Below are positions 1 through 38,526 of a stretch of DNA of 38,526 nt, piece after piece. The translations under genes were made by a program, and so were the position numbers. The DNA comes from a virus, in IMG/VR virus record IMGVR_UViG_3300044274_000281. The stretch is one strand, 5' to 3'. The notes beneath the pieces were generated by a model. That model did no database searches and was not told the DNA's origin. It was given only the letters and a program-made list of their open reading frames with translations. Numbering within the stretch: position 1 is the stretch's first letter; each line of letters opens with the position of its first letter.

Positions 1-45
1 TGCCTTACAAGCAGGGGGTCACTGGTTCGAATCCAGTATTACCCA
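1..45 (+). tRNA. 3' portion of tRNA-Val (anticodon TAC); the window starts inside the gene
   Basis: Anticodon loop CTTACAA (4-10), anticodon-stem 3' strand GCAGG, 5-nt variable loop, T arm ACTGG-TTCGAAT-CCAGT (21-37), acceptor 3' strand ATTACCC plus discriminator A (38-45). The 5' half would lie left of the window. Confidence 0.8.
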
Positions 46-47
46 CA
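1..47. repeat. attL core (direct repeat with 38480-38526)
   Basis: tgccttacaagcagggggtcactggttcgaatccagtattacccaca is identical at both ends. The true repeat length may be longer because the window truncates it. Confidence 0.9.
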
Positions 48-296: not shown

Positions 297-1520
297 ATGA
301 ATGCGAAGATTAAGCTGTATAAAAACGATGGTAAAAATAGAAACGGAGAGTTTCCAATAAAGTTGATCATTACCCATAAAGGTGTTCCAAAAAGAGAAAC
401 AATAGGACACTCACTGGAAGAAGACTGGGATTTAACAACTGAGCTTCCCAATATTAATCATCCTGATTATGATGAGTTGTATGAATCCATTTTGATAATG
501 CGTCAGAGATCAAGGAAGAATGCATTCAAAAAAATGACCGATAAAAAGTTAGCACTTGAATTTCTTAAAAACGAAGATCAGGACGTTTCTGAAACAGATT
601 TCTATAAGTTTATTGATGAACTAATTCAAAGGTTACGAAATAATAACAAAGACGGTTTGGCAGAATCTTATGATACAGCCAAACGACAATTGCAATATTT
701 TATACCTGAACTTGCAATAGAAAATATCAATAAGCCACTGATTGAGAAGTTCAAAGTATATAAAAAAAATGAAGGGATCGAAAATTCCTCATTAAGTGTG
801 TATTTAAGAAGCTTGAGAGCAATCTATAATAAAGCTATAGATTTTTATGGTATAACGGACAAACAACCATTTAAAGGTGCTTTCAAGAATATCCCAGTTA
901 GAAAAAGGAGAAAGAAAAACAGATGGTTAGATAAAGAGCAATTAATAAAGCTCGCAACAGGAGAACTTGAAAAAGAGAAAGAAATTATCTCCAGAGACCT
1001 CACTATGTTACAGTTCTATTTAGGCGGTGCTGACTTGATGGATGTTTATTATCTGAATAAAAATATGTTTTTTGACGACAGAGTTATGTTACAACGTAAG
1101 AAACTTGGAGAAAAAGGATATGAATTTGATGTAAAAGTATTCCCAGAAGCAAAAAAAATAATTGACAAATACTCAGATCCAAACCGATTGGATATTTTTC
1201 CATTTAAAAAAGAGCATAAAAGTTATACGTCATTTCGAAGAAATCATTTAAAACGGTTAAAGGTGATACAAGAAAAATTAGATATTCAACTGTTACCATT
1301 ACAGGATGGACTTACTACTAAAGTTATTCGGCATTCTTTTGCTACAATTGGTAAATTTCTGCATATCGACGAAGACATAATGCGTGAGATAATGGGACAT
1401 GAAAGAGATGATATCGATACTATTTACAAAGATAAATATCCAGAAGAAGAGCGTGATGAGGCACATTTAAAAATTATATCCTTAAAAAACGAAGATCATT
1501 CTTCTTCAAACATTTCATAA
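297..1520 (+). CDS. int: Tyrosine recombinase / phage integrase
   Basis: 407 aa. SAM-like N-domain signature (LSVYLRSLRAIYNKA). Catalytic-domain motifs VIRHSFAT (HxxR) and MGHERDDIDTIYKD (H...Y). Adjacent to attL. Confidence 0.9.
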   Translation: MNAKIKLYKNDGKNRNGEFPIKLIITHKGVPKRETIGHSLEEDWDLTTELPNINHPDYDELYESILIMRQRSRKNAFKKMTDKKLALEFLKNEDQDVSETDFYKFIDELIQRLRNNNKDGLAESYDTAKRQLQYFIPELAIENINKPLIEKFKVYKKNEGIENSSLSVYLRSLRAIYNKAIDFYGITDKQPFKGAFKNIPVRKRRKKNRWLDKEQLIKLATGELEKEKEIISRDLTMLQFYLGGADLMDVYYLNKNMFFDDRVMLQRKKLGEKGYEFDVKVFPEAKKIIDKYSDPNRLDIFPFKKEHKSYTSFRRNHLKRLKVIQEKLDIQLLPLQDGLTTKVIRHSFATIGKFLHIDEDIMREIMGHERDDIDTIYKDKYPEEERDEAHLKIISLKNEDHSSSNIS

Positions 1521-1936
1521 TATGAATTTTCCTCACAAGTCATATCAATGTTAAGTTCATTATCATCAATAATAACAAACTTCTCACTACTTTTTTTATA
1601 GTAAAAGCAGTAATTGTGCATGTAGTGAGGAATGAAATCTTTATCTTTCCAGCCTTTGCGAGAATTTCCCTTAGTACAAAATTGATCAATTATATTTTTC
1701 TCCTTTAAAACTAAAGTGTCATTAATAATCAAATGATCACCAAAAGGTTGTGTAGATATTCTTTTACCATGGACTGCATAAAAAATTGTATCGTTTTCAG
1801 TTTTATAAAGAATCAGATTGTGCCCGCTTTTATATCCATTCAATGAATATCCAAATACCAAATATGAGAACATGGTGATAATGATAGTAGCTATTGCTAT
1901 TAACAATATATTTTGAGGTTTAAAATAAGATTTCAT
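1496..1936 (-). CDS. Hypothetical membrane-anchored protein (N-terminal TM helix)
   Basis: 146 aa with hydrophobic segment ILLIAIATIIITMFSYLVFGY. Convergent with int and overlaps it by 25 nt. Confidence 0.65.
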   Translation of the reverse strand: MKSYFKPQNILLIAIATIIITMFSYLVFGYSLNGYKSGHNLILYKTENDTIFYAVHGKRISTQPFGDHLIINDTLVLKEKNIIDQFCTKGNSRKGWKDKDFIPHYMHNYCFYYKKSSEKFVIIDDNELNIDMTCEENSYYEMFEEE

Positions 1937-2154
1937 GCAATGAGCTTTTTAAGCTTAATAATTAAGATGTAAGCTCCTGTTATAACTAATAATACTAGAC
2001 AGAGTAGTATTAGAATTCCTAAAATAATAATAAATGATTCTGGAAACTCAACGTTGGCTCCAGGTCTAGTAACATGAGTTTTATCAACAGCATATATGTA
2101 TTCTATGAAGAAAAATAAAGTTAAGAAAAGTATGAGTTTCAAGCGCTTAATCAT
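1933..2154 (-). CDS. Small membrane protein (two hydrophobic segments)
   Basis: ATG at 2154 (MIKRLKLILFLTLFFF...), 10 nt after the upstream stop. The ORF-track start at 2220 would overlap the upstream gene by 56 nt. Confidence 0.6.
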   Translation of the reverse strand: MIKRLKLILFLTLFFFIEYIYAVDKTHVTRPGANVEFPESFIIILGILILLCLVLLVITGAYILIIKLKKLIA

Positions 2155-2164
2155 AATGAAAAGT

Positions 2165-2755
2165 TTACTCCCTAAATGTGTTGTATGAGATTGAAGTAGC
2201 CCATTTAGGTCTATTTGCAAGTAAATTCATAAAGATAGTGTCATCATCTATGTTATTTTGAAATCCAATCAAACTAGTATCTTTCAATTTTCTATCCGCA
2301 ATTTTTGTCAATGTTAAAGGAATATATAACCCAGTTCCAATATTTGTAACCATTCTTAAAATTCCTTTATCCAATAACCCTGCAACTGTAGGATCATCAA
2401 TGGGCATAATAACTGTCTTCTTTTCTTGAATTAAAAACTCTCGAATCACTGCTTGTTCATGTAAATCTAATGATTCCAAGTGTTCTATAATTAGATTATT
2501 TCTTTTCTTTTTATTAAAACGGTTTTCCAATTTATCTTTTAAATAGTAAACTATCGATAGTGCAATAAAAGAAATAGATGCAAGAAAAATTGGACCAAAA
2601 AATTTACCATAATCTTTTCTAAATTCGGTCATTCTAAGGCTTTCAATAAAACTATCTGTTGAAAAAATTAGAATCCCACTAATTATCCCCAAAAAAATGA
2701 AGATTTTCATTGGGATTTTGTCTAAATCTATTAAATCACTTAGTTTGAAACTCAT
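2165..2755 (-). CDS. Membrane protein, superinfection-exclusion (SieB-like) candidate
   Basis: ATG at 2755 (MSFKLSDLIDL...). Two N-terminal TM segments, then a soluble domain (LHEQAVIREFLIQEKKTVIMPIDDPTVAGLLDKGIL) reminiscent of the SieB family. The track start at 2800 is TTG and sits inside the predicted -7 box. Confidence 0.45.
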   Translation of the reverse strand: MSFKLSDLIDLDKIPMKIFIFLGIISGILIFSTDSFIESLRMTEFRKDYGKFFGPIFLASISFIALSIVYYLKDKLENRFNKKKRNNLIIEHLESLDLHEQAVIREFLIQEKKTVIMPIDDPTVAGLLDKGILRMVTNIGTGLYIPLTLTKIADRKLKDTSLIGFQNNIDDDTIFMNLLANRPKWATSISYNTFRE

Positions 2756-2797
2756 ATTTTTAATTATGTATACTAGTAATTTGTAGTAAAATATACC

Positions 2798-2805
2798 CAA
2801 ATATA
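2798..2805 (-). promoter_or_regulatory. Bacteroidota-type -7 box (TATATTTG = TAnnTTTG) for the SieB-like gene
   Basis: Plus strand caaatata. Exact match to the consensus, ~43 nt upstream of the ATG at 2755. Confidence 0.45.
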
Positions 2806-2840
2806 CTGTTTTTAAGTATAATAATTATTTTCCATCTTAT

Positions 2841-3728
2841 CTACAATTTGTTTGAAAGTTGTTTTAATTTCTTCTTATCGCTTTCTTCAGTATCTAATAT
2901 TGATTGATACTTTTCCAAATCAATATTTTTTTCAATATTTTCAGTTAGCAATTGATTTAATGTTCTTGGATTTAATGCATCAACCTCCCAAGATACTTGA
3001 CCGTATTTTTTTATATAATCCTTTGCTCTTGGATCAGTAATTTTTGCAGGATTTGGCGGTGGGTTATGCTCTCTTATTTGATTCATGGTTAATGCAATTG
3101 GCTCAACACTTAAAGCATTGTAAATCTCCTGTGCCTCTAGCATTTCATTTATGCGCTCATCAATATCACGTATCATGTCCATGCCGCTTGGATCATGGTC
3201 GCCTAAGTATAATATTTTACAATTTTTACCTTTAAAATATTGACTTCTGAACCTGTTATATGCATCATGTATAGCTGTAACTGAACCATAGCCTCTATTT
3301 ACTAATAGTTTTATGTGATACTTGCTAGTTATGCGTTTTAAAACTCCAGAAAGCGCGTCTTTTTCTACCCAAACCTCTATGTAAACATCTTGACCTTTTT
3401 GCCTATCTAGGCGGTACTGATTAATAGTGTCTTCAATTGCCTCTTGGGGGTCTTCGTTGTAATAAGGAATGTAAGGAACTCGCAACCTATCTTCTATCGC
3501 TTCCCAATTAACAACACCCGCCATTCTGCCCTCTTTTAAAAGCTTAGAGAGTTTAGCGTACTCAGATTGTTTATTTGGAATTACATCTCTTGAAACAAGC
3601 TGGTAGTACAACTGACGTAAAGTTAACTTGTATCCATCTGCTGCATATTCTTCAATAATAGAATTCACTAAATCGAGTTTTAACAAGTTTTTCTTGCTTA
3701 AATGAATTTCTCTAAACTTCGTTTTCAT
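2841..3728 (-). CDS. Topo VI subunit-A / Spo11-like protein ('Mini-A'-type: 5Y-CAP + Toprim, no B subunit)
   Basis: 295 aa. LTLRQLYYQLVSR (catalytic-Tyr context, cf. Spo11 RDIFY), VWVEKDALSG (Toprim Glu), YLGDHDPSGMDMI (Toprim DxDPxG). Confidence 0.6.
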   Translation of the reverse strand: MKTKFREIHLSKKNLLKLDLVNSIIEEYAADGYKLTLRQLYYQLVSRDVIPNKQSEYAKLSKLLKEGRMAGVVNWEAIEDRLRVPYIPYYNEDPQEAIEDTINQYRLDRQKGQDVYIEVWVEKDALSGVLKRITSKYHIKLLVNRGYGSVTAIHDAYNRFRSQYFKGKNCKILYLGDHDPSGMDMIRDIDERINEMLEAQEIYNALSVEPIALTMNQIREHNPPPNPAKITDPRAKDYIKKYGQVSWEVDALNPRTLNQLLTENIEKNIDLEKYQSILDTEESDKKKLKQLSNKL

Positions 3729-3749
3729 ATCGGTTTATTTACTGTTATT

Positions 3750-4544
3750 TTACATTACCCAATTGGCAATGCTTTTTGGTTTATAATTATTTTCAATTGC
3801 TTCTTTTACTTTTGCGATCGCAAATCCATCGCGAAACGTGTGACCAATTTTATTTTCAACTTCAACGTATCTGTCAAGTAATTCAGGATTGGCAATACCA
3901 GCTGTAACAAGTGCATCAAACGGACTGAATATGCAAAAGCAACATGATAGTCTAGGCATACCTAAATCATAGGCGAAGTGGTAAGGAATATCATTTGATT
4001 TTATACAGTCCCAGACTTCTTTAGTTGTCCAGTTCAAAATCGGATTGAACTCATACACTTTGCGCGTTTGGATAGTTAATCGTTGAATCAAAGAAATTCT
4101 TTTCTTTTTTGCTCGTTGTGGACTCTCTTCTTTACGAAATCCGAAAACACTCAATACTTCTTTTGCTTTGATTTTGTTGGATATTCTACGAATTACTTTG
4201 TCTCCTGGCGCGCGCTTGAAATCGCTAGTACAATATCGTTGATTTCTACTCGGCCACTTTTTTCTACGCTCCACATATTCAAGTAAATTCTCTTCGTAAC
4301 CGTTTTGGTCAACTCTTTTTTCGACTTCAACAAATAGACCGTATTTGGCGGCTTGTTTTACAACCAATTCTTTAGTGCCAGTCCATTCCATTTCTCCCAA
4401 ATCTTGATGGGATACAATGATTTTACTTTTAGGGAAATTTTGATTTTCCGCTTCCATGACAATCTCATGTAATGCACATACACTATCCTTTCCGCCAGAT
4501 GAATTGACAACTATTAAATCATATTTGCGTAAATCAATATTCAC
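3750..4544 (-). CDS. PAPS-reductase-family PP-loop ATP pyrophosphatase (DndC/SspD/CysH-like fold)
   Basis: 264 aa. VVNSSGGKDSVCALH (SGGKDS PP-loop), RYCTSDFKRAP, GFRKEESPQR, and C-terminal Cys cluster PRLSCCFCIFS. Confidence 0.8.
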   Translation of the reverse strand: MNIDLRKYDLIVVNSSGGKDSVCALHEIVMEAENQNFPKSKIIVSHQDLGEMEWTGTKELVVKQAAKYGLFVEVEKRVDQNGYEENLLEYVERRKKWPSRNQRYCTSDFKRAPGDKVIRRISNKIKAKEVLSVFGFRKEESPQRAKKKRISLIQRLTIQTRKVYEFNPILNWTTKEVWDCIKSNDIPYHFAYDLGMPRLSCCFCIFSPFDALVTAGIANPELLDRYVEVENKIGHTFRDGFAIAKVKEAIENNYKPKSIANWVM

Positions 4545-4549
4545 GATTT

Positions 4550-5197
4550 CTACTGTTTTTTGTTAATACTTATTTTTCGTTTGGCATTTTGGTTGCCAAT
4601 ATTTTTGTGACGTTTTCGGTAATCATAATTTTCATTCTCGAATATTTTGTAAATAGTTCCTTGAGATATTCCGAATGTATTTTTGATCTCTCTGATTGAA
4701 CTATCACTATCTTTATGCATCAATACAACTGCCTTAGATATCTTCTTAATTCTTTCAGTCATGCCTTTTGGGCGACCGCCTTTTATTCCTCTACTTCTTG
4801 ATGATTGTAATCCTGCCATGACACGTTCACGATTAATTTCCCTGTCCATTTGATTTAATGATGTAAATACATTGAAAATGAATCTTCCATGTGGTGATTT
4901 TGTGTCAAGAAACGGCTCTTGTATACTCTTGAATTCTATGTTGTTCGACTCAAAAAATTCCATCATTGAGAGCATGTGTTTAACGTTTCTTGCCAGTCGA
5001 CATGATTTCCAAACTATCACCGTATCTCCTTCACGTAATTTCATCAACAGAGTTTCTAAACCAATTCTGTCTTCCTTTGCTCCCGAAGCTATATCAGTCA
5101 TTATATTCTTTGGGTCAATTCCAAAGGCTTCCAATGCATCTGTTTGCATTTGTAAATTTTGAGCTGGAGTACTTACCCTTGCGTAACCGAATTTCAT
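4550..5197 (-). CDS. Small serine recombinase (resolvase/invertase, Hin/Gin-like)
   Basis: 215 aa. MKFGYARVSTPAQNLQMQ (catalytic Ser), GDTVIVWKSCRLARN, GRFIFNVFTSLNQMDRE, GGRPKG, C-terminal HTH. Confidence 0.9.
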   Translation of the reverse strand: MKFGYARVSTPAQNLQMQTDALEAFGIDPKNIMTDIASGAKEDRIGLETLLMKLREGDTVIVWKSCRLARNVKHMLSMMEFFESNNIEFKSIQEPFLDTKSPHGRFIFNVFTSLNQMDREINRERVMAGLQSSRSRGIKGGRPKGMTERIKKISKAVVLMHKDSDSSIREIKNTFGISQGTIYKIFENENYDYRKRHKNIGNQNAKRKISINKKQ

Positions 5198-5294
5198 TTT
5201 TGGAGTTTAGTGTAGTTTGTAATTATTTATCTTAATTTGTTTTGTAATAGCTTGATTATAAATAGTATGTGCCTAAATATTCAAATTCTGATTA

Positions 5295-6353
5295 TTATGA
5301 ATTCTCTTCCTTATTGAAATACAACAAGTAGTAGTACATCTGTTTTTCTTCATCCCAGCCTTTTTCCACAAACTTCTCTGCAGATTCGGGATTGATAAAA
5401 TTCATTTTGATTTGAATATTAGTATCAAGATTGATTGAATTCTTTATCCCTTTTCTTACCGCAGAAACCGCTTGGTTAGAAATTGGGAACTCTGTCACAT
5501 CTTCAATGCTATATTTCGGTCCTTTCTCAATTTTGTAGTGTTGGAATTCAGGAAGTAAATCAGGGTTTTCAATTACTTCATTCAAGAACTCAGTTTCAAG
5601 AAAATTGTCATTTTTTGCAAAGTGATTTACCGCACGATTCATAAACATCACTTCTTCTTTTTTGTCCTCGGCTGGAAACACCACATCTCTAGCAAAATTT
5701 TGACAGAACTTTAGGTATTTTTTAGTGTAGAAGTTTTCATCTTCAAAAGTGTCAACACCCAAAAAATGATCAAGCCAATACTTAGTGTCGTACTTATTGC
5801 TGTCTATAGATAGAATTTTGAAGCCTTCTTCTTTTCGGACGTTGAAGATGATACATCCTTTGTCAAGCTTATTCAACGAAATTCCTTGTTGTAAGAGGAC
5901 TTCAAGATTATTTCCATTCTCTTCTATTTGTAAGAAATCGTGTTTTATCTCCGATTTGAAGATTCCAATTGCATCTATTTTTTCATTGTCAATAATGACA
6001 TTTTCAAAGTATCCAATATACACTTCTCCGCTTTTAATATGTGGGTGTTGCGATTGTTCATAGAGTAGATTTGTGATTTTAGTTGAATTGATATGGATGC
6101 TTTCTGGCTGATTAAAAATATCAACCGCAATTGCATACAATGGATTGAATTCAACATCTACTTCACTCACAAATTGGAAATAGTTTTCTTCTTTCTCGCG
6201 AAAAGGCTTGAAAAAATATTCTTTTAGTAGTGGCTTCAATTCATCTGTTATCCAGTACGGTTCTTTGGATATTACCACTTTTTCATTTCTACTTTTGTTT
6301 CCAATTTTGTGGATGGAAACTGCGGAAAATTCCGCGCTGTACAAATTGATCAT
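5295..6353 (-). CDS. Nucleoid-associated protein, NdpA/YejK-like (Bacteroidota type)
   Basis: 352 aa. The N-terminus (AVSIHKIGNKSRNEKVVISKEP) resembles the vHkvGNK...l.lS signature of Bacteroidota 'nucleoid-associated protein' annotations. Confidence 0.5.
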   Translation of the reverse strand: MINLYSAEFSAVSIHKIGNKSRNEKVVISKEPYWITDELKPLLKEYFFKPFREKEENYFQFVSEVDVEFNPLYAIAVDIFNQPESIHINSTKITNLLYEQSQHPHIKSGEVYIGYFENVIIDNEKIDAIGIFKSEIKHDFLQIEENGNNLEVLLQQGISLNKLDKGCIIFNVRKEEGFKILSIDSNKYDTKYWLDHFLGVDTFEDENFYTKKYLKFCQNFARDVVFPAEDKKEEVMFMNRAVNHFAKNDNFLETEFLNEVIENPDLLPEFQHYKIEKGPKYSIEDVTEFPISNQAVSAVRKGIKNSINLDTNIQIKMNFINPESAEKFVEKGWDEEKQMYYYLLYFNKEENS

Positions 6354-6822: not shown

Positions 6823-7127
6823 GCTTCTTCGGTTTCAATTATGGGTGGATTTTGGCTTCCATTATTTTGGCAGAAAAGAACTTTGTTGTAATCACCTGCA
6901 AAACATTCTGCATTATTTCCATTTATTTTTAGCAATCGATTTTTCATTTTGGTGATGATCACATCATCTTTTTTGTGGTCCTCCTGGAGTAGAGAATATC
7001 TTGTGACTGTATTTCTACCTCCGTATTTGTGCTTTGCATTGTTTTTCAAGCAAATGATGGCTACTATTTTGGAACAATGCTTGCAAAAGTATTTTTGTCC
7101 GTGGCTACAATTGTTGGTTCTGGGCAT
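6819..7127 (-). CDS. Hypothetical Cys/His-containing protein (possible zinc binding)
   Basis: 102 aa. CSHGQKYFCKHC near the N-terminus. Overlaps the upstream gene end by 23 nt. Confidence 0.6.
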   Translation of the reverse strand: MPRTNNCSHGQKYFCKHCSKIVAIICLKNNAKHKYGGRNTVTRYSLLQEDHKKDDVIITKMKNRLLKINGNNAECFAGDYNKVLFCQNNGSQNPPIIETEEA

Positions 7128-8865
7128 GTTGAATTGTATTTTTTTCTACTTCTAAAATGTTGATTAATGCTCTGGCCAGTGTACCTTTTTTCTTGTGGTG
7201 TTTCTTTTCCAAACTTTCTACATAGCCTGTTAATTCTTCAAATCTGCATCTGCCTTTCAAATACTTACGTGCGCGTAAAGTAATTTTATGAGTCAGTTCT
7301 CTTTGCTTCTTTTTTTGGAGTGAATCTTTGTTTTTATCAGCTTCGTTCTTTAGATAATTTTCATGCTTTTTGAAGTGTTTTTTCGTATATCCAAAGCCAC
7401 CTTCGTAGGAATTGGTTCGTGTGAGATTGAAATATTCTCTTGGGTATAGCAGTTTATAATCAGGATATCTGGAACAGTAGCTTATTACCCATTTAAGGCG
7501 CCAGCGAAACTCTTCAAGTTTTTCTAGCTGATATTGTTTGGAATAAATACCAGATGTTTTGCTGAAAAAATAGTTATAAAAAAAGTATTTTATTGTGTTG
7601 GTCCATTCACCTTGGTATACTTTTTTGTCTTTAAATATTCGGGCGGTGGTGCATATAAAGTCATAGATAATTATTCGCCTAAACTGCTCTTTATCAATAG
7701 TTCCATACTGTGCTTCCCAAATCAAGTCTCGCATTGGTAAAGGTCTGTAGTTATTATGTATTCCTGCGGCTAGTTCATTAGCCAATTCATACACACTTTT
7801 ATTGTATAGCACACGAAATGACTCTCTTATCGGGAAAATTTCTTTTCTTTTTTTTGCCGCAGCTTTTTTTTCTTTTGGCGCAGCCGCCGCAACTTGCTTC
7901 CCTGTGTTCCTATAGAATTCTGATCCGTTAGGATCACTTATCGCAGAATTGGAAACCTGTGGATAGAGAACCGACTGAACCTTTTTTAAAGCTTCCAATT
8001 CTTCCTTATCTATGGCATCTGCTTTAGCAGTAGCCTTATTATTTTTATGTTGAACTTGGTTACTATAGGAACTGTTGTTATATCCGTATTTTGCTGTGAA
8101 ATCCCCTGTATCGGTATATTTTTCGTAAGGTTTGTATCCGTCAGATATGCGAAGAACCAAAGGGTTTAGCTTTGCCATTGGAGCGTAATCATAGCCTCGG
8201 AACCTGTATTCTTCAATCACTCCACAGTCCAATAATCGCGCTATGTGTCTATGAATTGTATCTTTATCTAGATCTAACTTTGGGACCTCAGTACTAGTGC
8301 CCAGATCCAAGTTTACATTTAACAATGATTTTGCACTTAGTGGAAATTCATATCCTTCATCCAGACGCAATTGGGTTGATTCATTTGCTTGTAAGCACCA
8401 TAGGTTTCTTCCCTTTAATTTATAGGCGCAATGACTGAGAATAGCTGCAAATATTTGTTTACTGGCTTGCTTTACTTTATGATGTTTCTTCTTTCTGATT
8501 TTAACGCGATTGTCGGCATTAAACTCATTTACATGGGCGTTGTATAGTTTTACAGGAATAGTGCAACGTCCGTATGTTTCTCGAAGTCTACGATCGTATT
8601 TGTCCTTCATTTTAAAGATATCCTGCTCCTGGACAACCTTCATCTGGACCATTTTGTCAATCAAACTGTTGTGGTTGTCTACATCGTTGTTTAATTTTAC
8701 CAGCGTAGTATTGTTATACTCGTGTACAAATAATGAGTAATTATCAAGTGACTGCTTAAAGTCTTCTGATGTAATTACTGGATAAGTAAGGCTCGGCGGT
8801 TGTGCACTATCATAGATAGCTGATACCGCCGAAACACCTTGCTTCCTGTGCCTTGACTGTAACAT
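7105..8865 (-). CDS. Large hypothetical protein; possible winged-helix DNA-binding / replication-initiation protein
   Basis: ATG at 8865 (MLQSRHRKQG...); the track start at 8889 is GTG inside a hairpin. wHTH-like DTIHRHIARLLDCGVIEEY, a basic Ala/Lys linker, and no Walker A motif. Function is inferred from position and size only. Confidence 0.7.
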   Translation of the reverse strand: MLQSRHRKQGVSAVSAIYDSAQPPSLTYPVITSEDFKQSLDNYSLFVHEYNNTTLVKLNNDVDNHNSLIDKMVQMKVVQEQDIFKMKDKYDRRLRETYGRCTIPVKLYNAHVNEFNADNRVKIRKKKHHKVKQASKQIFAAILSHCAYKLKGRNLWCLQANESTQLRLDEGYEFPLSAKSLLNVNLDLGTSTEVPKLDLDKDTIHRHIARLLDCGVIEEYRFRGYDYAPMAKLNPLVLRISDGYKPYEKYTDTGDFTAKYGYNNSSYSNQVQHKNNKATAKADAIDKEELEALKKVQSVLYPQVSNSAISDPNGSEFYRNTGKQVAAAAPKEKKAAAKKRKEIFPIRESFRVLYNKSVYELANELAAGIHNNYRPLPMRDLIWEAQYGTIDKEQFRRIIIYDFICTTARIFKDKKVYQGEWTNTIKYFFYNYFFSKTSGIYSKQYQLEKLEEFRWRLKWVISYCSRYPDYKLLYPREYFNLTRTNSYEGGFGYTKKHFKKHENYLKNEADKNKDSLQKKKQRELTHKITLRARKYLKGRCRFEELTGYVESLEKKHHKKKGTLARALINILEVEKNTIQHAQNQQL

Positions 8866-8880
8866 ATTATGTTTATTTAT

Positions 8881-8923
8881 GAAACTCACTGCTAGTCGCC
8901 AAACTATATAGGCAGTGGGTTTC
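8881..8923. other. 12-bp stem hairpin between the tRNA-Met gene and the 594-aa gene
   Basis: GAAACTCACTGC - 19 nt - GCAGTGGGTTTC (one G-U). The T-run follows only on the plus strand. Confidence 0.5.
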
Positions 8924-8936
8924 TTTTATTACTTTG

Positions 8937-9009
8937 TAGCGGGGACAGGACTCGAACCTGTAACCTCTGGGTTATGAGCCCAGCGAGCTACCATTTGCTC
9001 TACCCCGCG
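8937..9009 (-). tRNA. tRNA-Met (anticodon CAT) with initiator-type features
   Basis: 73-nt cloverleaf: CGCGGGG-TA-GAGC-AAATGGTA-GCTC-G-CTGGG-CTCATAA-CCCAG-AGGTT-ACAGG-TTCGAGT-CCTGT-CCCCGCT-A. It has a C1/U72 mismatch, A11:U24, and three G:C pairs closing the anticodon stem. Confidence 0.9.
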
Positions 9010-9245: not shown

Positions 9246-9935
9246 TTAATTATGATGATGGTTTGTTATTTCAGGATCATACGCTTCTTTTCCCCAAGCT
9301 GTCACGATCAAATATCCTCCTTTCACTTTCTTGAATACTATGGGATCATCCACAAGAATGTGATTGTCTTTGATCTCATCGGGATCGTGCTTCATCATCT
9401 CTGCAGGAGCTGCAATCATGAATTCCTCCATTCTCATCATTGTAGCGAGTCCATCCATTTGTTCTCTGAGCCTTGATCCAGAAAATGGATTAAATATTGA
9501 AGGTACTGATCCTGCAGAAAGCAAGGATGATTCCATACTTAAAAAAAGATCATCTGAATTCTTACGGCTTAGATTTCTCTTGTATAATTTTTTAAACGTT
9601 TGTATATCTTCCAAGTTTTTATCTGGAATGTCTCCTAAATAGCGGCGCGTGTTACCAAATAATAATCCGTATTTTTCACAGACTCTTTTAATACCTTCTT
9701 CCGTGATGAATCTGTAAGGCATTCCAATTTTGATATACTCTAAGGCAGAAGTGACCGACTTGTAGTCTTCTACTGGAACTGCATTAATAAATCCAAATTC
9801 CTTTACCTTTTCCGATTTAGCCTGTAGACTTTCCAATTCAGACTCGGTCATTGCGCTTGCTCTGTTTGTGACTTGCTGAGATTCTTTGTAGAAATCATTC
9901 AAGATCACTTCTGCTGTAATAGCTTCAGTACTCAT
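9246..9935 (-). CDS. Hypothetical protein
   Basis: 229-aa ORF in the leftward block. No recognised motif. Confidence 0.75.
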   Translation of the reverse strand: MSTEAITAEVILNDFYKESQQVTNRASAMTESELESLQAKSEKVKEFGFINAVPVEDYKSVTSALEYIKIGMPYRFITEEGIKRVCEKYGLLFGNTRRYLGDIPDKNLEDIQTFKKLYKRNLSRKNSDDLFLSMESSLLSAGSVPSIFNPFSGSRLREQMDGLATMMRMEEFMIAAPAEMMKHDPDEIKDNHILVDDPIVFKKVKGGYLIVTAWGKEAYDPEITNHHHN

Positions 9936-9955
9936 AAAAAATTGTTTTTAAAATT

Positions 9956-10205
9956 TGCCAGCAGTCAGGAATCGAACCTGCAACAGTCTAACATTTAAGC
10001 TATCATTTTTACGTTTCAAGCACCTGTTTCCGAAAACTCGTTGAGTTTCCCTGCTATGTGTGACCAAGTGGAGTTCCTTTCAATCTCCCGCTAAAGTCTT
10101 GCAAGTTATTAACCGAGTGGCATGCATTCTCGTAGACACAACAGTCTTGACTGCGAAATGTTTGTCAAACCCTGTTTTCCGTGTGCCGTTTCCTCGCGTG
10201 TAATA
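9956..10205 (-). ncRNA. Candidate structured RNA with a tRNA-like T arm at its 3' end (not a canonical tRNA)
   Basis: ORF-free, G+C-elevated gap. The minus strand ends ...GCAGG-TTCGATT-CCTGA-CTGCTGG-CA, containing GGTTCGATTCC. It also has an internal duplication: CGGAAA(A)CAGG..TTGA(C)AAAC..AGACTGTTG occurs twice. Confidence 0.35.
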
Positions 10206-10218
10206 CTATAAAAGCCTT

Positions 10219-10470
10219 TTATTTTTTAGGCGCATTGTAGTCGCACCCTTTTTCATCAGATGTTACTTCCTGTTGACTTATTTTGACTTCACCAAATGAT
10301 AAACGCCCTTCGTCAAACCATTGTGCTTCTGGGTACTTCTTGGTGTCATCACAATCGGGTTTTACCAAATATTGATCACATCCAGTTAAGTATTCGGCAT
10401 GCCCAACAATTACTCCACTAAATTGTGTAATCTTGTCTGTGGCAGTTCTTCCTAAATTTTGATTTTTCAT
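10219..10470 (-). CDS. Hypothetical protein
   Basis: 83-aa ORF. Confidence 0.7.
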   Translation of the reverse strand: MKNQNLGRTATDKITQFSGVIVGHAEYLTGCDQYLVKPDCDDTKKYPEAQWFDEGRLSFGEVKISQQEVTSDEKGCDYNAPKK

Positions 10471-10482
10471 AATTTCACGGCT

Positions 10483-10602
10483 TTAATGCTTTAGTCCGCA
10501 TTGATTACAGTACGGATAACCATCTTTGTTATACTTCACTTTGGTTTCAATCTCGCATTCAAAACAGTAAAGTCTTGGTGGTATATATGATTCTGATTCC
10601 AT
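10483..10602 (-). CDS. 39-aa zinc-ribbon micro-protein (below ORF-track cutoff)
   Basis: MESESYIPPRLYCFECEIETKVKYNKDGYPYCNQCGLKH (CxxC-N16-CxxC). Starts 2 nt after the upstream stop. Confidence 0.45.
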   Translation of the reverse strand: MESESYIPPRLYCFECEIETKVKYNKDGYPYCNQCGLKH

Positions 10603-10604
10603 AT

Positions 10605-10817
10605 TTAAACAGCGACTAATTCTGGATCATTAACTTCAATTTCATTTGCTCTCACTGTATCTAGTTTATTGTTGAGACGTATGAGCGTGTTCTGTAAGTG
10701 CTTTCGATTTTCAATTTTCTGATCACCTTTGATTGAATTGTCAGAATCAAGATTGATGATTGATTGCTGAATATTGTCAATGTCTTGCTGAAGCTGTTGT
10801 ATTTCAGGATTTTCCAT
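10605..10817 (-). CDS. Hypothetical coiled-coil protein
   Basis: 70-aa ORF, heptad-like and Q/N/D-rich. Confidence 0.65.
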   Translation of the reverse strand: MENPEIQQLQQDIDNIQQSIINLDSDNSIKGDQKIENRKHLQNTLIRLNNKLDTVRANEIEVNDPELVAV

Positions 10818-10832
10818 ACTTAGACAATTTGG

Positions 10833-10896
10833 TTAGGTTAAATGAGTGCGGCGTTGCTTCCGCACTCACTACGCTTAAAAATATTATTTAACCTAA
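10833..10896. promoter_or_regulatory. Nested inverted repeats upstream of the 10817 gene
   Basis: Outer 11-bp IR TTAGGTTAAAT (10833-10843) / ATTTAACCTAA (10886-10896). It encloses a 9-bp G+C-rich stem TGAGTGCGG (10843-10851) / CCGCACTCA (10860-10868). Confidence 0.4.
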
Positions 10897-11142
10897 AAAT
10901 TATATTATGCCTACTCTGATCAGTTTTCGGCTTCCCTGTTATCTTTAAAATGCTCGTCTTTCCGAGCCGTCAGACTCAATTCATCGTTTGTCTTTTGAAT
11001 TCCCGTCTGTCTTGTCATTTCACTATTCTTTCCAAGATGTCATCGGTTAGGTTGACCGCCACCGAAAGGTCAAGACGTAATCAATTGAGTCGCTTCTTAC
11101 ATATTGAATGGGTTACGTTCATGCAATTGCTATATTTTAAAA

Positions 11143-11361
11143 TCATCGCTTTACTTGATTTCGTTTCAAATTCCTATTGATAATACTGTTTACTGTGAGT
11201 TCGGAAATTCCAAAGTGTTTACCAACTACCCAAAGTCGATTGTCTTCTTGGGTGTTGAAATACTCCATCACGTCAGCGTCTGTGTATGTAACTTTATCAT
11301 GTTTCATTGCTTGACTATTTTCCAGTTTTTTGCATAGTTTTTTACATATTCTTGTAAACAT
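11143..11361 (-). CDS. Small HTH DNA-binding protein
   Basis: HTH-like segment WVVGKHFGISELTVNSIINRN. ATG at 11361, or alternatively 11307 (MKHDKV...). The track start at 11379 is TTG. Confidence 0.55.
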   Translation of the reverse strand: MFTRICKKLCKKLENSQAMKHDKVTYTDADVMEYFNTQEDNRLWVVGKHFGISELTVNSIINRNLKRNQVKR

Positions 11362-11431
11362 TTTGCCATGGTAGCACAATGTATTTCTTTAATAGCTGTT
11401 CCCTTTTTTCGTTGTAATACTATCTTTGGCA

Positions 11432-11785
11432 TCACTCATAACCTTTTAGTTTCCGAACGCGCTTTACTTCGTCCGTTAGTATTTTTGTGGTGCCAGTTGA
11501 GTCTGGGAAAACGGAATCTTTTCTAAAGGTTCCATTCTTGGTCCAGGTACTGATTGTATTAAATGTCTTTGGGATGATTTTGTTTTTTGAAATCTCGTGA
11601 ATGGTCAAACTCTTTTTGCGTAGTAGTTTCGCTTGCGTTTTTCTGAGTTCTGCTTCTTCATTTTGATTGTTGGCAAACGCTGCTGGAACGATGACCAGAT
11701 TTTGCTGCTTTAAATACGAAACAAACTGCGGCATAAATTCCTGCACGTCTATCAATCCTTGTTGTATGTTTACCGAGCCATCCAT
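11432..11785 (-). CDS. Hypothetical protein, possible HTH (excisionase-like) C-terminal half
   Basis: 117 aa. LTIHEISKNKIIPKTFNTISTWTKNG resembles the excisionase-family HTH pattern. This is a weak call. Confidence 0.6.
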   Translation of the reverse strand: MDGSVNIQQGLIDVQEFMPQFVSYLKQQNLVIVPAAFANNQNEEAELRKTQAKLLRKKSLTIHEISKNKIIPKTFNTISTWTKNGTFRKDSVFPDSTGTTKILTDEVKRVRKLKGYE

Positions 11786-25879: not shown

Positions 25880-27625
25880 ATGAGTTTAGATCCAATAGAT
25901 TATCCGACAAAAGTTAATTTAAACATTGTAGTTGATCAGCAAAGACAAGCTACAGCAGAAGACTTCAATCAGATAAAACTAAAGTATAATACTTTATTGT
26001 CAGATTATAAGATTCAGAAAGGAGTTAATTTAGCCAATGAAAAAGAGATTGAAATTCAATCTTTATCGAGTAATGGTAAAGTGAATGCAATTGTAAAAGA
26101 TGGAGGTCAAATTAAAATCCATCGACACTTAGGAGCTGATAATTGGCTAGAAATTACACTAGGCAATTCGGGTTCTTTTGATACAGATGTCTTATCTGCG
26201 TACAAAGTAGTAAGTCAACGAGTATACAAAATGTTTGGTTATATATTAGCGAATGATGCTTCTCAATCAGGTACATGGCAGTCATGGACATCCAATTCTG
26301 CTACACAATATGTAGGTCATAAGTCTCTAAGAAGTTTTAATCCTGGTGATCAACTTTCTTTTACTAAAACTTTCGGAGGAAATCTCAGTTTAGTTTATGT
26401 AGCCGACACAGATGGAGGAATGGTTGAAATATCAATCAATGGTGAAACACCAATAATTGTTGATACATATTCAGAAACATCCAATTTATATAATCAAAAA
26501 CAGAATATATATACTGATTTACCTTATGGAACGCATACAGTAACTATTACTGTTTTGTCTGATAGTAATTCGAATAGCTCAGGAACTCAGGTTTGGTTCA
26601 ATGCGCTAGAAGTATCAGGAGATATATTCTTAGATGACCCATTAGTTTATCCTAAAAAGTGGGAATCGGGAACTGCATATTTACAGTTTGATGAAGTTAT
26701 TGGACAGGATGGAAATATATACATAGCCCAACAAGATGGAACTTCAGGAAATACAATTCCTGCTCATAGTTCTGGTTCAGTTAGTGATGGTGTAATTGAT
26801 TGGCTATATTCTTCTGCATCCTCATTTGTTTCAGAAAGTTTTCGTATACAGGCTATTGGTAGCGAGTTAGAGTATGCTTATGAGGTAGTCCCTTTGGATG
26901 AAGACATAGTTGAGGATATAGGAGGCAATCTTCATGGAAATGAGTACATAGATACTATGTCATATTATGTAGATGGAAAAAAAATAGAATTGGTAGAAGG
27001 AGTATACTATAAAGGTAAATCGATAACAGTCGAGCAAAACCTAGTTCAATTCTATGGTGATTATCAAAATAGGTTAGAAATAGCTAATGTTAAGCAGATA
27101 CACGCTTTTTCCCTTGAATGTATGAGCGTTAGATATTCAATTGATCTCATTTATCAATGTAATATCGGTTACTACTATACCGCAATGTTTCCATTTTTAG
27201 CATACGATGGGGCAAATCAAAGAATCCAATTTAAGGAGTTATCTTCTCCTCAAGCATCCGTTAAATTATTAGATTATGATGGAGTCTCAGGAAATCCTAT
27301 ACTTGGAAAAGAAAAAGATTTTATTGCGTATGCAGTAGGAAATGCTTTTGTGCCACGAGGCTCTGGTGGAGTCCCTTCAACTGAACCAGCAAAAGAGAAA
27401 GTAACAATCGCTTTAAGAGTGAATAGTGAAACTATGGATAACTACACTGAAAGTGAAATGAATTGTGGTTTAGCAGTCAATACTAACGGTAATAGCTTTA
27501 CAGGGTACTCTTCAATTTTATCTAAGATTTACTTTCAACGTATACGATCTGGTCAATCTGTTGTTTTTCAACCAGGAGATAAGCTACAAGGATTTAACAA
27601 ATACTATATAAAAATCCATAAATAA
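25880..27625 (+). CDS. Large structural protein with a CBM5/12-like carbohydrate-binding motif
   Basis: 581 aa. KKWESGTAYLQFDEVIGQDGNIYIAQQDGTSGNTIPAHSSGSVSDGVIDWLY. Confidence 0.6.
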   Translation: MSLDPIDYPTKVNLNIVVDQQRQATAEDFNQIKLKYNTLLSDYKIQKGVNLANEKEIEIQSLSSNGKVNAIVKDGGQIKIHRHLGADNWLEITLGNSGSFDTDVLSAYKVVSQRVYKMFGYILANDASQSGTWQSWTSNSATQYVGHKSLRSFNPGDQLSFTKTFGGNLSLVYVADTDGGMVEISINGETPIIVDTYSETSNLYNQKQNIYTDLPYGTHTVTITVLSDSNSNSSGTQVWFNALEVSGDIFLDDPLVYPKKWESGTAYLQFDEVIGQDGNIYIAQQDGTSGNTIPAHSSGSVSDGVIDWLYSSASSFVSESFRIQAIGSELEYAYEVVPLDEDIVEDIGGNLHGNEYIDTMSYYVDGKKIELVEGVYYKGKSITVEQNLVQFYGDYQNRLEIANVKQIHAFSLECMSVRYSIDLIYQCNIGYYYTAMFPFLAYDGANQRIQFKELSSPQASVKLLDYDGVSGNPILGKEKDFIAYAVGNAFVPRGSGGVPSTEPAKEKVTIALRVNSETMDNYTESEMNCGLAVNTNGNSFTGYSSILSKIYFQRIRSGQSVVFQPGDKLQGFNKYYIKIHK

Positions 27626-27646: not shown

Positions 27647-27967
27647 ATGACATTACTAATATCATACATAACTAATACAACGATTGGTAAATGGTTGTAT
27701 GGTCTAGTCTTTACAGTTTCAACCTACGACCTAGTAAAACAATCTACTATGAATGAAACATCTTTTTTTGAGGAGCTTTTAAAAAATGTTCCTGCGCAAG
27801 TAGTATATGTATTAGGAATAATTTATGGAATTGCAATTGTCTTGACTAAAATTTCCGATTTATGGAAAAGGCACGAATTAAATAAGCTTCAAGTAAAAAA
27901 AGAAAGAGAACATCTCGAACAAGAAGAGATTAATACCGAAATCCAACGAAAAGAAATTCAAAAATGA
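27647..27967 (+). CDS. Holin candidate
   Basis: 106 aa. Hydrophobic segments (WLYGLVFTVSTY; VVYVLGIIYGIAIVLTKI) followed by a highly charged C-terminus. ATGA overlap with the next gene. Confidence 0.5.
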   Translation: MTLLISYITNTTIGKWLYGLVFTVSTYDLVKQSTMNETSFFEELLKNVPAQVVYVLGIIYGIAIVLTKISDLWKRHELNKLQVKKEREHLEQEEINTEIQRKEIQK

Positions 27968-28392
27968 AAAAGGTAGTACTACAACGTCTATGGCAAGATA
28001 AGAACCAAGCTACAGGAGTACTAACTGTTGTAGATAGTATAGGACAACCAATTTTTATTTGCTTGTGTATTGAAAGAGGAGATCGTAACAATAAACGAAA
28101 CGTCAGCAATGTTCCTGCGGGAATATATCCTTTAGTCCTAGAATACTCTCCTAGATTTAAACGTGATCTTTTTGAATTAAAAGAAGTACCAAATAGGAGT
28201 GAGTGCAAAATACACGCATCAAATTTTTGGACACAACTAAATGGATGCATTGCACCAGGACTAAAGTTGAAAGATATGAACCGTGATGGATACTATGATG
28301 TCACTAACAGTAAAAATTCACTTGAAGAATTCCATACTGCTTTAAATGGAATTAAGAAGACAACTATTCAAATAATAGATCCAGCAAAATGA
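27964..28392 (+). CDS. DUF5675-like protein; candidate non-canonical endolysin
   Basis: 142 aa. NVSNVPAGIYPLVLEYSPRFKRDLFELKEVPNRSECKIHASNFWTQLNGCIAPG matches my recollection of the DUF5675 pattern (IP.G.Y...VP.R..I.IH..N....L.GCIAP). Flanked by holin-like and spanin-like genes. Confidence 0.45.
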   Translation: MKKVVLQRLWQDKNQATGVLTVVDSIGQPIFICLCIERGDRNNKRNVSNVPAGIYPLVLEYSPRFKRDLFELKEVPNRSECKIHASNFWTQLNGCIAPGLKLKDMNRDGYYDVTNSKNSLEEFHTALNGIKKTTIQIIDPAK

Positions 28393-28907
28393 AATTAGCT
28401 TTAAAAATCATTCTACTTTCTATTTTAGTTTATTCTTGTTCGGTCAAAAAAGACTCAGCAAAGAAAAAAATCAAATCAGTTGAAGCAAAAGATGTGAATA
28501 CTGAAATAGTGAGAAGCATTCAGGAAAAAAGGAAAGGAGGTAAAATCACCACTGAAATCATTCCAGTTGAAAAACGTGAACGCGATGAGAATGGAGAACT
28601 TAAAGAATTGATCGAAACCATAAAAGATGGTGGTTTAACAAAAACAGTCATTTACCGTCCTGATGGAAAAGTCGATGTTGAATGTACAGCAGATGAAATT
28701 TATCGTTTGATTAAAGAAAAAATCAAACAACAGGATAATTCCATTGTCAAAGAAGAAGTCAAAGAAAAACAAAAGCAAAAAGAAGAAAAGTTTAATCCTG
28801 CTCCATTCATTTTTGGATTAATTGGTTTAGCAATTATTCTATTGGTTGGATTTTTCATAATGAGGCGTGTTATAGAGAAATCCTTAGTAAAAAAGCTCAA
28901 CAGCTAA
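28389..28907 (+). CDS. Unimolecular-spanin-like protein (N-terminal lipoprotein signal + C-terminal TM)
   Basis: 172 aa. MKLALKIILLSILVYSC lipobox at the N-terminus and PFIFGLIGLAIILLVGFFIM at the C-terminus. ATGA overlap with the upstream gene. Confidence 0.5.
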   Translation: MKLALKIILLSILVYSCSVKKDSAKKKIKSVEAKDVNTEIVRSIQEKRKGGKITTEIIPVEKRERDENGELKELIETIKDGGLTKTVIYRPDGKVDVECTADEIYRLIKEKIKQQDNSIVKEEVKEKQKQKEEKFNPAPFIFGLIGLAIILLVGFFIMRRVIEKSLVKKLNS

Positions 28908-29683
28908 TGCGCTTAAACTTCGACATACCAACCTCATGGAATGAACTTACTAATTGGCAATTGAAGCGAATTGCAAGTATTTTTTTTTCGGATAAGGATA
29001 CTAAAAAAGTCACTTTCCTTTTGGTAGTATATTTATTCATGCCTCGTTTATCATTGTGGAATATACTGAAACTATTCTTTTTGTTCATGCAAGTTCCATA
29101 TTCGGCTTTAAAAGAGTACACTAAATTTCTTTATGAAGAAAACGATCTGACTCGGTTTCCAAAAAAACTACGTTCTCGTTTTTCTTATCTACATGGTCCT
29201 GCAGATAGACTTTCAAATGTTACAATTGAAGAGTATGCCTATGCTGATTTATTTTATTACAATTGGGCGAAGACAAAGTCAACTACTGATTTAGACCGAT
29301 TGGTTTCAGTCTTGTACAGACCGAAAGCAAATGAAACAGAAGAATTGACAGATTTAAGACAAGCTTTCGATAAGGATAAACTCAGGTTTCATGCCAAATC
29401 AGTCGAACGTTTATCAACGCTAACCAAGATTACAATCATGATGGCATTTCAAGGTTGTCGTGACAATATAATCAAACGATACACAAACGTCTATAAAAAA
29501 GGAAAATCAAAATCAGGATACGCGCCATTTACAAAAATTATTGCTTCTATGGCCAGAGGCGAAAGTCAACCTTTTGGAGATTATTACAAAACCAAACAAG
29601 CGAATGTCTTTGACTTCATGGAAATGCTTGATGAAGAGATCAAAGAACAACGGCTAAAACTTAAAAAGACAAAAAAGAAATGA
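28907..29683 (+). CDS. Hypothetical protein
   Basis: 258-aa ORF. Confidence 0.7.
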   Translation: MRLNFDIPTSWNELTNWQLKRIASIFFSDKDTKKVTFLLVVYLFMPRLSLWNILKLFFLFMQVPYSALKEYTKFLYEENDLTRFPKKLRSRFSYLHGPADRLSNVTIEEYAYADLFYYNWAKTKSTTDLDRLVSVLYRPKANETEELTDLRQAFDKDKLRFHAKSVERLSTLTKITIMMAFQGCRDNIIKRYTNVYKKGKSKSGYAPFTKIIASMARGESQPFGDYYKTKQANVFDFMEMLDEEIKEQRLKLKKTKKK

Positions 29684-38479: not shown

Positions 38480-38526
38480 TGCCTTACAAGCAGGGGGTCA
38501 CTGGTTCGAATCCAGTATTACCCACA
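38480..38526. repeat. attR core = displaced 3' fragment of tRNA-Val
   Basis: Identical to 1-47. It is preceded by AT-rich phage DNA (...attataatttaa) that cannot form the tRNA 5' half; the anticodon-stem 5' strand would be AATGC instead of CCTGC. Confidence 0.9.

Follow-up and report, generated by a model that had tools for sequence, protein, structure and literature searches.

A three-gene candidate lysis module in a prophage of a Kordia-like flavobacterium, with a DUF5675 protein as its probable endolysin

The window analysed here is the whole 38,526-nucleotide stretch of viral DNA held as IMG/VR record IMGVR_UViG_3300044274_000281, and the subject of this report is a run of three translationally coupled genes within it, which encode a small membrane protein (ORF1), a bare single-domain protein of the Pfam family DUF5675 (ORF2) and a lipoprotein with a C-terminal transmembrane (TM) helix (ORF3). 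The positions of these genes are collected in Table 1. An earlier sequence-only reading of the same DNA had placed ATGA start/stop overlaps between the genes, and these were found where it had put them, at 27964-27967 for ORF1/ORF2 and at 28389-28392 for ORF2/ORF3, the start of ORF3 thereby lying 4 nt inside the stop of ORF2. On the sequence evidence set out below, positions 27647-28907 are read as a lysis module in which ORF2 would be the endolysin, ORF1 the holin and ORF3 a unimolecular spanin (u-spanin); we give this reading a probability of roughly three in four.

Table 1. Positions of the cassette genes, the attachment sites and the integrase in the window
Feature	Position	Strand	Description
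ORF1	27647..27967	+	106 aa, small membrane protein, holin-like
ORF2	27964..28392	+	142 aa, single-domain DUF5675; proposed cytoplasmic endolysin
ORF3	28389..28907	+	172 aa, unimolecular-spanin-like; lipobox and C-terminal TM helix
attL	1..47	+	47-bp direct repeat, exact copy of 38480-38526; 3' end of a tRNA gene
attR	38480..38526	+	second copy of the 47-bp repeat
integrase	297-1520		inside the att-bounded prophage

ORF2 scores 86.6 bits with DUF5675 (PF18925; cutoff 26.7, E=1.4e-24), the match running over positions 2-113 of the 114-position profile, and it matches phrog_1501, a family annotated 'unknown function', with E=1.3e-23. The family proposed for it in the sequence-only reading was thus the right one, whereas the motif given there, H-x12-GC, has to be corrected to H-x9-GC: the residues are H84-x9-G94-C95-I96, with a distance from His to Cys of 11 residues. 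The protein is without a signal peptide, and its AlphaFold2 (AF2) model is mostly beta with a pLDDT of 96.3. DUF5675 comprises 7,817 clusters at E<=1e-3; its members are labelled 'hypothetical' in most phage records examined, and Pfam carries the family as a DUF. Conservation was followed in alignments of 63 close homologs, of 18 sequences from across phyla, down to 24% identity, and of 150 representatives of different 50%-identity clusters. The key residues are invariant in the 18-sequence alignment, which includes members from Bacteroidota, Vibrio, crAss-like phages, Microviridae and a Ralstonia jumbo phage. Likewise, among the 150 representatives E37 (146/147), N43 (143/145), S62 (147/149), R78 (150/150), H84 (148/149), G94 (147/147) and C95 (148/148) are conserved at 97-100%, and all of them are present in ORF2. 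C81, by comparison, is clade-specific and is therefore not regarded as catalytic. From this pattern we infer a putative catalytic centre composed of Cys95 and His84 together with Glu37.

The gene neighbourhood of the family was surveyed in 59 viral IMG/VR loci dereplicated at 80% identity, with genes at least four positions away serving as background. The gene at position -1 relative to DUF5675 encodes a TM helix in 35/57 cases (61%) versus 81/419 (19%) in the background (Fisher p=1.7e-10), and the gene at +1 does so in 40/56 cases (71%; Fisher p=1.0e-14 against the same background). A TM protein was present within two genes on either side in 56/59 loci, the median gap between DUF5675 and its neighbours is -1 nt, and 4-nt overlaps are frequent. 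Since the enrichment was obtained over 59 independent loci, the pattern of TM neighbours is not attributable to chance. Scanning 103 TM neighbours with Pfam identified 12 members of six holin families, namely Phage_holin_4_1 (2e-19), GTA_holin_3TM (2e-11), Phage_holin_2_3, 2_1, 3_3 and 2_4, the types represented including HP1, P21 S, LydA and superfamily II-like holins. The question raised by the sequence-only reading, whether DUF5675 genes stand beside holins in other phages, is thereby answered in the affirmative. In addition, proteins combining a lipobox with a C-terminal TM helix, of unrelated sequence, occupy position +1 in 9/56 loci versus 5/419 in the background (p=3e-6).

Individual genomes display the same arrangement. 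In the relative P0004 (78% identical), a Phage_holin_4_1 gene, DUF5675 and a homolog of ORF3 follow one another at the end of the prophage, after the tail genes. In the Cellulophaga phage Ingeline the genes gp37-gp38-gp39 encode a 44-aa TM protein, DUF5675 and a lipobox protein of 157 aa whose C-terminus is hydrophobic, and in the Cellulophaga phage phi39:1 small TM proteins surround DUF5675, which follows a pectate-lyase tail fibre and precedes the early genes. In martha 12B12, a Mu-like Vibrio phage, the gene has the late activator on one side and the DksA-like, DUF2730 and small-terminase genes on the other, in the slot that lys takes up in Mu. Across the relatives the enzyme is constant and its membrane partners are mosaic, the ORF1 and ORF3 slots being replaced while DUF5675 is kept, which is the usual behaviour of a lysis cassette.

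The domain was also observed in other contexts, among them fusions of a kind that is typical of lysins. A phiKZ gp144-type peptidoglycan-binding domain (3BKH, E=1.9e-9) stands N-terminal to DUF5675 in P0294, and a 933-aa Synechococcus phage protein annotated with a GH19 domain, returned by Foldseek at E=1e-3, is a further candidate fusion. Long members of the family carry an N-terminal HExxH domain in 32/37 cases. This two-domain form, seen in P0284, P0290, P0297 and P0313 (~300-340 aa), consists of a ~170-aa HExxH domain followed by a C-terminal DUF5675; the HExxH domain gave no match among PDB sequences and is a motif-level observation, and P0294 and P0304 carry instead a papain-like 'SC(A/T)TFSALN ... 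G(S/T)HA' domain. At the other extreme of genome size, in Microviridae genomes of 4.8-6.8 kb with 4-6 genes, DUF5675 is one of the few non-core genes and the sole candidate for a wall hydrolase that profile libraries recognise. An unannotated ORF of ~129 aa in Gokushovirinae sp. PV067912.1 (L009; ~1678-2067, + strand; DUF5675 by Pfam at E=9e-29) is flanked by the major capsid gene and the DNA pilot gene, and the Microviridae MH572525 (4705-5085) and PQ007373 (4829-5242) carry DUF5675 as a 'hypothetical protein'.

No lysozyme, amidase, transglycosylase or wall peptidase was detected by Pfam and PHROGs in the remaining 38 ORFs with at least 90 aa, in agreement with the earlier statement that no lysozyme, amidase or peptidase was recognised elsewhere in the prophage. 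The lone 'endolysin' PHROG match (E=9e-5) aligns aa 128-506 of the tape-measure protein with a 1338-position profile and corresponds to the coiled-coil body of that protein; it was rejected. Likewise, the full Pfam list for three complete genomes, those of phi39:1, Ingeline_1 and martha 12B12, revealed no wall hydrolase in 71 of their proteins, either unassigned, structural or tape-measure. The search in the window spanned the whole element, because the window is a complete prophage from attL to attR: the terminal 47-bp repeats are identical and constitute a tRNA gene's 3' end, window positions 1-45 corresponding to Rfam tRNA positions 28-71. In the genomes of Kordia algicida OT-1, K. periserrulae and K. 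zhangzhouensis, tRNA-Val(TAC) ends at its 3' side in exactly this 47-mer. The window is thus, from end to end, a prophage integrated in tRNA-Val of a Kordia-like flavobacterium, and all three cassette genes lie within it on the + strand. A window truncated inside the tail module, with a lysin beyond its edge, is ruled out by the att repeats at its ends.

By hydropathy, ORF1 has a single strong TM helix at aa 48-66; its N-terminus is weakly hydrophobic, and its C-terminal tail is charged and rich in K and E. The holin-like protein of the sequence-only reading therefore retains its charged tail, but has a single clear TM helix in place of the several attributed to it. In being small, with at least one TM domain (TMD), a charged C-terminus and ATGA coupling to ORF2, the protein has the makeup of a holin. 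Homologs of ORF1 are absent from 80 related loci, where the slot is occupied by other TM proteins, including Pfam holins. Homology with Ingeline gp4, a 106-aa gene that follows the adaptor, would have made ORF1 a structural gene; it was considered and rejected, as there is no similarity. We judge it somewhat better than an even bet that ORF1 acts as a holin.

The N-terminus of ORF3 carries a lipoprotein signal, MKLALKIILLSILVYS-C17, with the lipobox V-Y-S-C17, and its C-terminal TM helix (aa 138-158, Kyte-Doolittle hydropathy 2.9) is followed by the basic tail RRVIEKSLVKKLNS; the architecture ascribed to it in the earlier reading is hence present at both ends of the protein. The lipobox Cys is kept in 8/8 full-length homologs with the pattern [VLIF]-x-[SG]-C, and the TM helix is kept in the homologs as well, while the Tyr at -2 deviates from the strict [ASTVI] consensus. 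The intervening periplasmic domain of ~120 aa has a conserved core at aa 47-104. A u-spanin is defined by an outer-membrane lipoprotein signal together with a TMD at the C-terminus in the last gene of a lysis cassette (Kongari et al. 2018, PMC6139136), and ORF3 unites a lipoprotein signal and, at its C-terminus, a TMD with the last place in the cassette, beside ORF2. Searching 5.8 billion proteins returned only 9 homologs of ORF3, none of them named a spanin, compared with 357 for ORF2; judged by these numbers, ORF3 evolves fast. Cys99, in the periplasmic domain, is invariant in all 9 homologs and may permit disulfide-linked dimers, as in two-component spanins. A fold search of the ORF3 model against BFVD gave nothing usable. 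As with ORF1, the odds that ORF3 acts as a unimolecular spanin are taken to be moderately favourable. In the nearest relative, the P0002 contig (L107:10423-11071), which shares the same backbone and encodes an 82% identical DUF5675, two overlapping genes stand in the ORF3 slot, for a 118-aa protein with an N-terminal TM helix and a 116-aa protein with a C-terminal TM helix and an early Cys; this pair may be a two-component envelope-disruption pair standing in place of the u-spanin-like gene.

In combination, holin-family synteny, a downstream u-spanin architecture and the lack of any other lysin domain strongly support DUF5675 as the endolysin, and further support comes from the replacement of Mu lys, the presence in Microviridae, the peptidoglycan-binding fusion and the near-invariant Cys and His. 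An endolysin role suits the bare 142-aa form with its coupling to membrane proteins, and the comparison across many phages points to this widespread family as a type of phage endolysin that has mostly gone unrecognised. The proposal of the sequence-only reading that DUF5675 may be the endolysin has thus been strengthened by synteny, holin families, fusions and complete genomes. From these data we infer muralytic activity for ORF2, the catalytic roles of its residues, the holin and spanin functions of its partners and the bond cleaved, and the following course of events is proposed. ORF2 would fold and build up in the cytoplasm until ORF1, at the end of the late programme, permeabilised the inner membrane and allowed the enzyme to reach the wall. 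There it would attack the stem peptide, the Cys95 thiolate acting as nucleophile and His84 as general base, to give an acyl-enzyme that is then hydrolysed; Glu37, Arg78, Asn43 and Ser62 would line the site, and a peptide or amide bond of the stem would be cleaved. ORF3, tethered to the outer membrane through a lipoylated Cys17 and to the inner one through the helix at its C-terminus, would be freed from the meshwork after the wall has been cut and would then disrupt the outer membrane. By analogy with Tlde1 and the L,D-transpeptidases (LD-TPases), considered below, the bond could be of the L,D type at the carbonyl of meso-diaminopimelate (meso-DAP), a suggestion made with low confidence. Such a cut would open 3-3 cross-links and, provided that donor stems were accepted, 4-3 cross-links as well.

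A number of observations weigh against the reading of ORF2 as an endolysin within a complete lysis module. No report of muralytic activity was found in the literature for any DUF5675 protein. In favour of a lysin role, an independent preprint on prophages of periodontal pathogens classes the DUF5675 domain of the protein LysPd160 as a 'C82-like' lysin domain by AlphaFold and US-align, noting 'significant differences' (bioRxiv 10.64898/2026.04.11.717860); this 294-aa, two-domain protein was found via its EL188-like binding domain and was chosen for expression, with no result stated in the available part of the text. Foldseek comparison of the ORF2 model with 350,542 PDB chains gave no match at E<=0.001, the best being NUDT5 (E=0.011, TM-score 0.25), and phmmer and hmmsearch with ORF2 and DUF5675 profiles returned nothing relevant among PDB sequences. 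As the fold is without a PDB match, the chemistry proposed for ORF2 is read from conserved residues only. ORF1 has no Pfam or PHROG family match and belongs to no known holin family. ORF3 has no spanin PHROG or Pfam match at E<=0.1, and its AF2 model is of low confidence (pLDDT 65), with three strands (74-101) and a long charged helix (102-133). Its sequence also predicts a periplasmic cysteine, Cys99, unlike the 58 catalogued u-spanins, in which such a residue occurs in 0/58 (Kongari et al. 2018, PMC6139136). The DUF5675 copies of Microviridae have no signal peptide and no evident holin partner. A PHROG scan of phi39:1, Ingeline_1 and martha 12B12 placed the 'hydrolase' family phrog_10327 among the best 25 of 81 families, and a second lysin of an unrecognised family could lie beyond the reach of profile searches. 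Finally, DUF5675 is not exclusively an endolysin domain, as it also occurs in giant virion proteins, in the manner of lysozyme and transglycosylase domains. It is located near the C-terminal part of the 7.5-kb 'tail fiber protein' gene of Ralstonia phage RP12 (L008, NC_041911, 1-4879), BFVD matches place it inside proteins of 868-1251 aa, and in crAss cr10_1 it is flanked by virion structural genes.

The sequence-only reading had likened the motif of ORF2 to the active site of YkuD-type L,D-transpeptidase folds. This resemblance was not recovered by Foldseek against the PDB or by HHalign, and the spacing on which it was based was wrong. The top 50 Foldseek PDB matches of ORF2 contain no L,D-transpeptidase, Csd6 or Tlde1a, and ORF2 has no Pfam match to YkuD at E<=10 and none to Tlde1 (PF10908). 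HHalign of 130 DUF5675 against 121 YkuD sequences, the YkuD profile comprising 120 homologs around the verified B. subtilis YkuD, gave a probability of 0.7% in the wrong register between profiles that are narrow (Neff 3.3 and 2.4), which limits the power of the comparison; the His/Cys register was never aligned in local, global or low-mact modes. The catalytic motif of YkuD is H-x(14-17)-[S/T]-H-G-C-h-R (PMC9638812), and ORF2, with H84-x9-G94-C95-I96-A97, departs from it in a shorter loop, in having no [S/T]H before the Gly and in having no Arg after the Cys. ORF2 is hence not filed as a YkuD or Tlde1 member.

Fainter signals of relationship were nevertheless observed. Pfam scans of 18 diverse DUF5675 members gave five matches to Tlde1_dom (E=0.0037-0.16; scores up to 18 bits, cutoff 30.1) and one to YkuD (E=0.19). 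All are below threshold, and in each of them it is the strand-His...Gly-Cys segment that pairs with the catalytic part of the profile. Tlde1a is a type VI secretion system (T6SS) effector with an 'altered LD-transpeptidase fold', LD-carboxypeptidase activity and catalytic residues H121, H129 and C131 (PMC9638812); the His-Cys spacing is 10 in Tlde1a, 11 in DUF5675 and 16 in YkuD. The pattern PxGx[YF]-x(24-36)-H-x(8-18)-GC[IV], formulated post hoc, is carried by 225/269 DUF5675 sequences and by 119/120 of those of YkuD, with a Gly-to-His spacing of 30-31 vs 30; its count among background ORFs is 0/963. Records of crAss-like homologs bear the annotation 'transpeptidase catalytic domain protein' or 'L,D-carboxypeptidase/transpeptidase'. 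An LD-TPase ancestry of DUF5675 is possible, not established, and we would put its chances a little short of even.

These signals also bear on an alternative that we consider unlikely, namely that DUF5675 is a Tlde1-like L,D-carboxypeptidase or exchange enzyme that poisons wall synthesis. Trimming tetrapeptides or precursors in the manner of an enzymatic 'amurin', it would leave load-bearing bonds uncut; the cell would lyse by growing on, and the membrane proteins on either side would have an accessory part. The sub-threshold Tlde1 matches, the His-Cys spacing close to that of Tlde1a (H121...C131) and the crAss annotations are consistent with such an activity; Tlde1a kills by LD-carboxypeptidase and exchange activity (PMC9638812), and Microviridae copies with neither a signal peptide nor a visible holin would suit a cytoplasmic target. 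However, the strong association with holins and spanin-like proteins is the prediction of a classic holin-dependent endolysin, and the mature wall is the substrate indicated by the fusion with PG_binding_1, a sacculus-binding domain, while the link to Tlde1 and YkuD is itself sub-threshold and escaped both Foldseek and HHalign.

Slightly less probable again is a virion-associated role, in which DUF5675 would be an entry-stage wall-remodelling enzyme that pierces the wall at infection, packaged in the particle and hence encoded inside the structural block. The gene does stand between portal/adaptor and tail genes in this prophage and in the relatives L012, L013 and L045, and the occurrences in RP12, in the large BFVD proteins and in cr10_1 favour a virion role. 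Conversely, the 142-aa form has no attachment domain and is coupled to membrane proteins on both sides, a hallmark of lysis cassettes, with genuine holins in relatives; phi39:1 gp30, the DUF5675 protein of that phage, is missing from the virion proteins detected by MS/MS in its record; and the terminal position of the cassette in P0004 indicates that placement in the structural block is not conserved. The prophage moreover offers no other endolysin candidate.

Very improbable, finally, is a membrane-associated accessory or superinfection-exclusion module with the real lysin encoded elsewhere, for instance by the 581-aa ORF at 25880-27625 or by an ORF below 90 aa: ORF1 and ORF3 are without a family, that ORF has a faint CE2_N match (E=0.0085), the profile scans covered ORFs of at least 90 aa and profile libraries are blind to new lysin families, yet DUF5675 is flanked by recognised holins in other phages, holds the lysis slot in phi39:1 and martha 12B12 and is fused to a peptidoglycan-binding domain, and it is DUF5675, not the 581-aa ORF, that is conserved in the nearest relative.

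The reading of ORF2 as the endolysin can be extended, tentatively and against the odds as we see them, to the family as a whole. DUF5675 would then be a distinct class of Cys/His peptidoglycan peptidase without a relative among solved structures, at most a deeply diverged short-loop offshoot of the L,D-transpeptidases or Tlde1. It would be the only endolysin in a large group of phages, chiefly from the sea and the gut (~7,800 clusters at 50% identity), among them Bacteroidota siphoviruses, vibriophages and crAss-like phages. If this is true, DUF5675 would also explain lysis in some Microviridae that have no E-type gene, where, with no holin, it may reach or attack its substrate by an unusual route such as cytoplasmic precursors. 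Its addition to the short list of endolysin domains would, if true, fill a missing-lysin gap in many phages of marine Bacteroidota and Vibrio, in phages of the crAss-like group and in some Microviridae, besides improving automated annotation of lysis genes and providing a single-domain enzybiotic scaffold of ~140 aa against Gram-negative bacteria. For spanins, the locus adds flavobacterial u-spanin candidates with a conserved periplasmic Cys that is missing in known u-spanins.

Translational coupling runs past the cassette, as ORF3 and ORF4 share TAATG at 28905-28909 and ORF4 and ORF5 share ATGA at 29680. ORF4 (258 aa) and ORF5 (169 aa) are kept with the tail module in related phages and are therefore placed outside the cassette. 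Directly upstream of the cassette, the 581-aa ORF with the carbohydrate-esterase-like CE2_N match occupies a variable slot that lies between the adaptor gene and the lysis genes and is filled in the nearest relative by proteins of 217 aa and 208 aa. Pfam and PHROGs recognise in the window an integrase, an invertase, a PAPS reductase, SieB, an S49 head protease, the large terminase, the tape-measure protein and a BACON-domain tail protein. The accessory genes of the early, left arm (1496-6353, - strand) comprise SieB-like superinfection exclusion, PAPS-reductase-like and resolvase/DNA invertase genes by Pfam/PHROG, together with a 37-kD nucleoid-associated protein (NA37) and a match to phrog_6247, 'DNA topoisomerase', at E=6.5e-90. 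A tRNA-Met (CAT) of the prophage, located at 8936-9009 on the - strand by ARAGORN and Rfam (65 bits), adjoins a 594-aa ORF at 7105-8889. An Rfam DUF805b RNA motif (RF02914; 10908-10940, - strand; 37.3 bits vs a gathering score of 35.6) sits in a 1.5-kb stretch, 9935-11432, that has no ORF of at least 90 aa.

The idea of DUF5675 as a lysin domain is not entirely new, since the April 2026 preprint classed it from structure prediction; what is added here is the case from genomic context and a set of candidate catalytic residues. LysPd160 and ORF2 share the Pfam family and a proposed peptidase-type lysin domain, ORF2 differing as a bare 142-aa domain within a cassette; the available part of the preprint gives neither genomic-context evidence nor activity data specific to DUF5675 (bioRxiv 10.64898/2026.04.11.717860). 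With the YkuD L,D-transpeptidases and the LD-carboxypeptidase Csd6 (MEROPS C82, PF03734), DUF5675 has in common the ordered motif P-x-G-x-[YF]...H...G-C-[IV] and, on our own reading, a C-terminal order of strand (His), loop, strand (Gly-Cys), helix and strand; its His-Cys loop is five residues shorter, and the conserved Arg after the Cys is missing. Tlde1a of Salmonella (PF10908; PDB 7UMA; PMC9638812) is likewise a small stand-alone Cys/His enzyme that acts on peptidoglycan, the target predicted for DUF5675, and both have a short His...Gly-Cys segment (H121...H129-G130-C131 in Tlde1a, H84...N93-G94-C95 in ORF2). The two differ in biological role and in delivery, by a T6SS for Tlde1a and, as proposed, through a holin for ORF2, and DUF5675 is without the second His before Gly-Cys. 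Among modular endolysins of the phiKZ gp144 type (3BKH), P0294 offers a parallel in which DUF5675 takes the place of the catalytic domain behind the same binding domain; the catalytic domain of gp144 itself is a lytic transglycosylase, and ORF2 has no binding domain. The nearest counterpart of the whole module is the T1-type holin/endolysin/u-spanin cassette (gp11; PMC6139136). The present one stands apart in an enzyme that belongs to no established lysin family, in an ORF3 with no detectable relation to gp11-type families, whose periplasmic domain is predicted to combine a long helix with beta strands and carries Cys99, in a flavobacterial host from a group barely represented in spanin surveys, and in a position between head and tail genes. 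Still, the cassette type is classical: as in T1-type cassettes, the genes are translationally coupled and a conserved enzyme is accompanied by mosaic, fast-evolving membrane partners.

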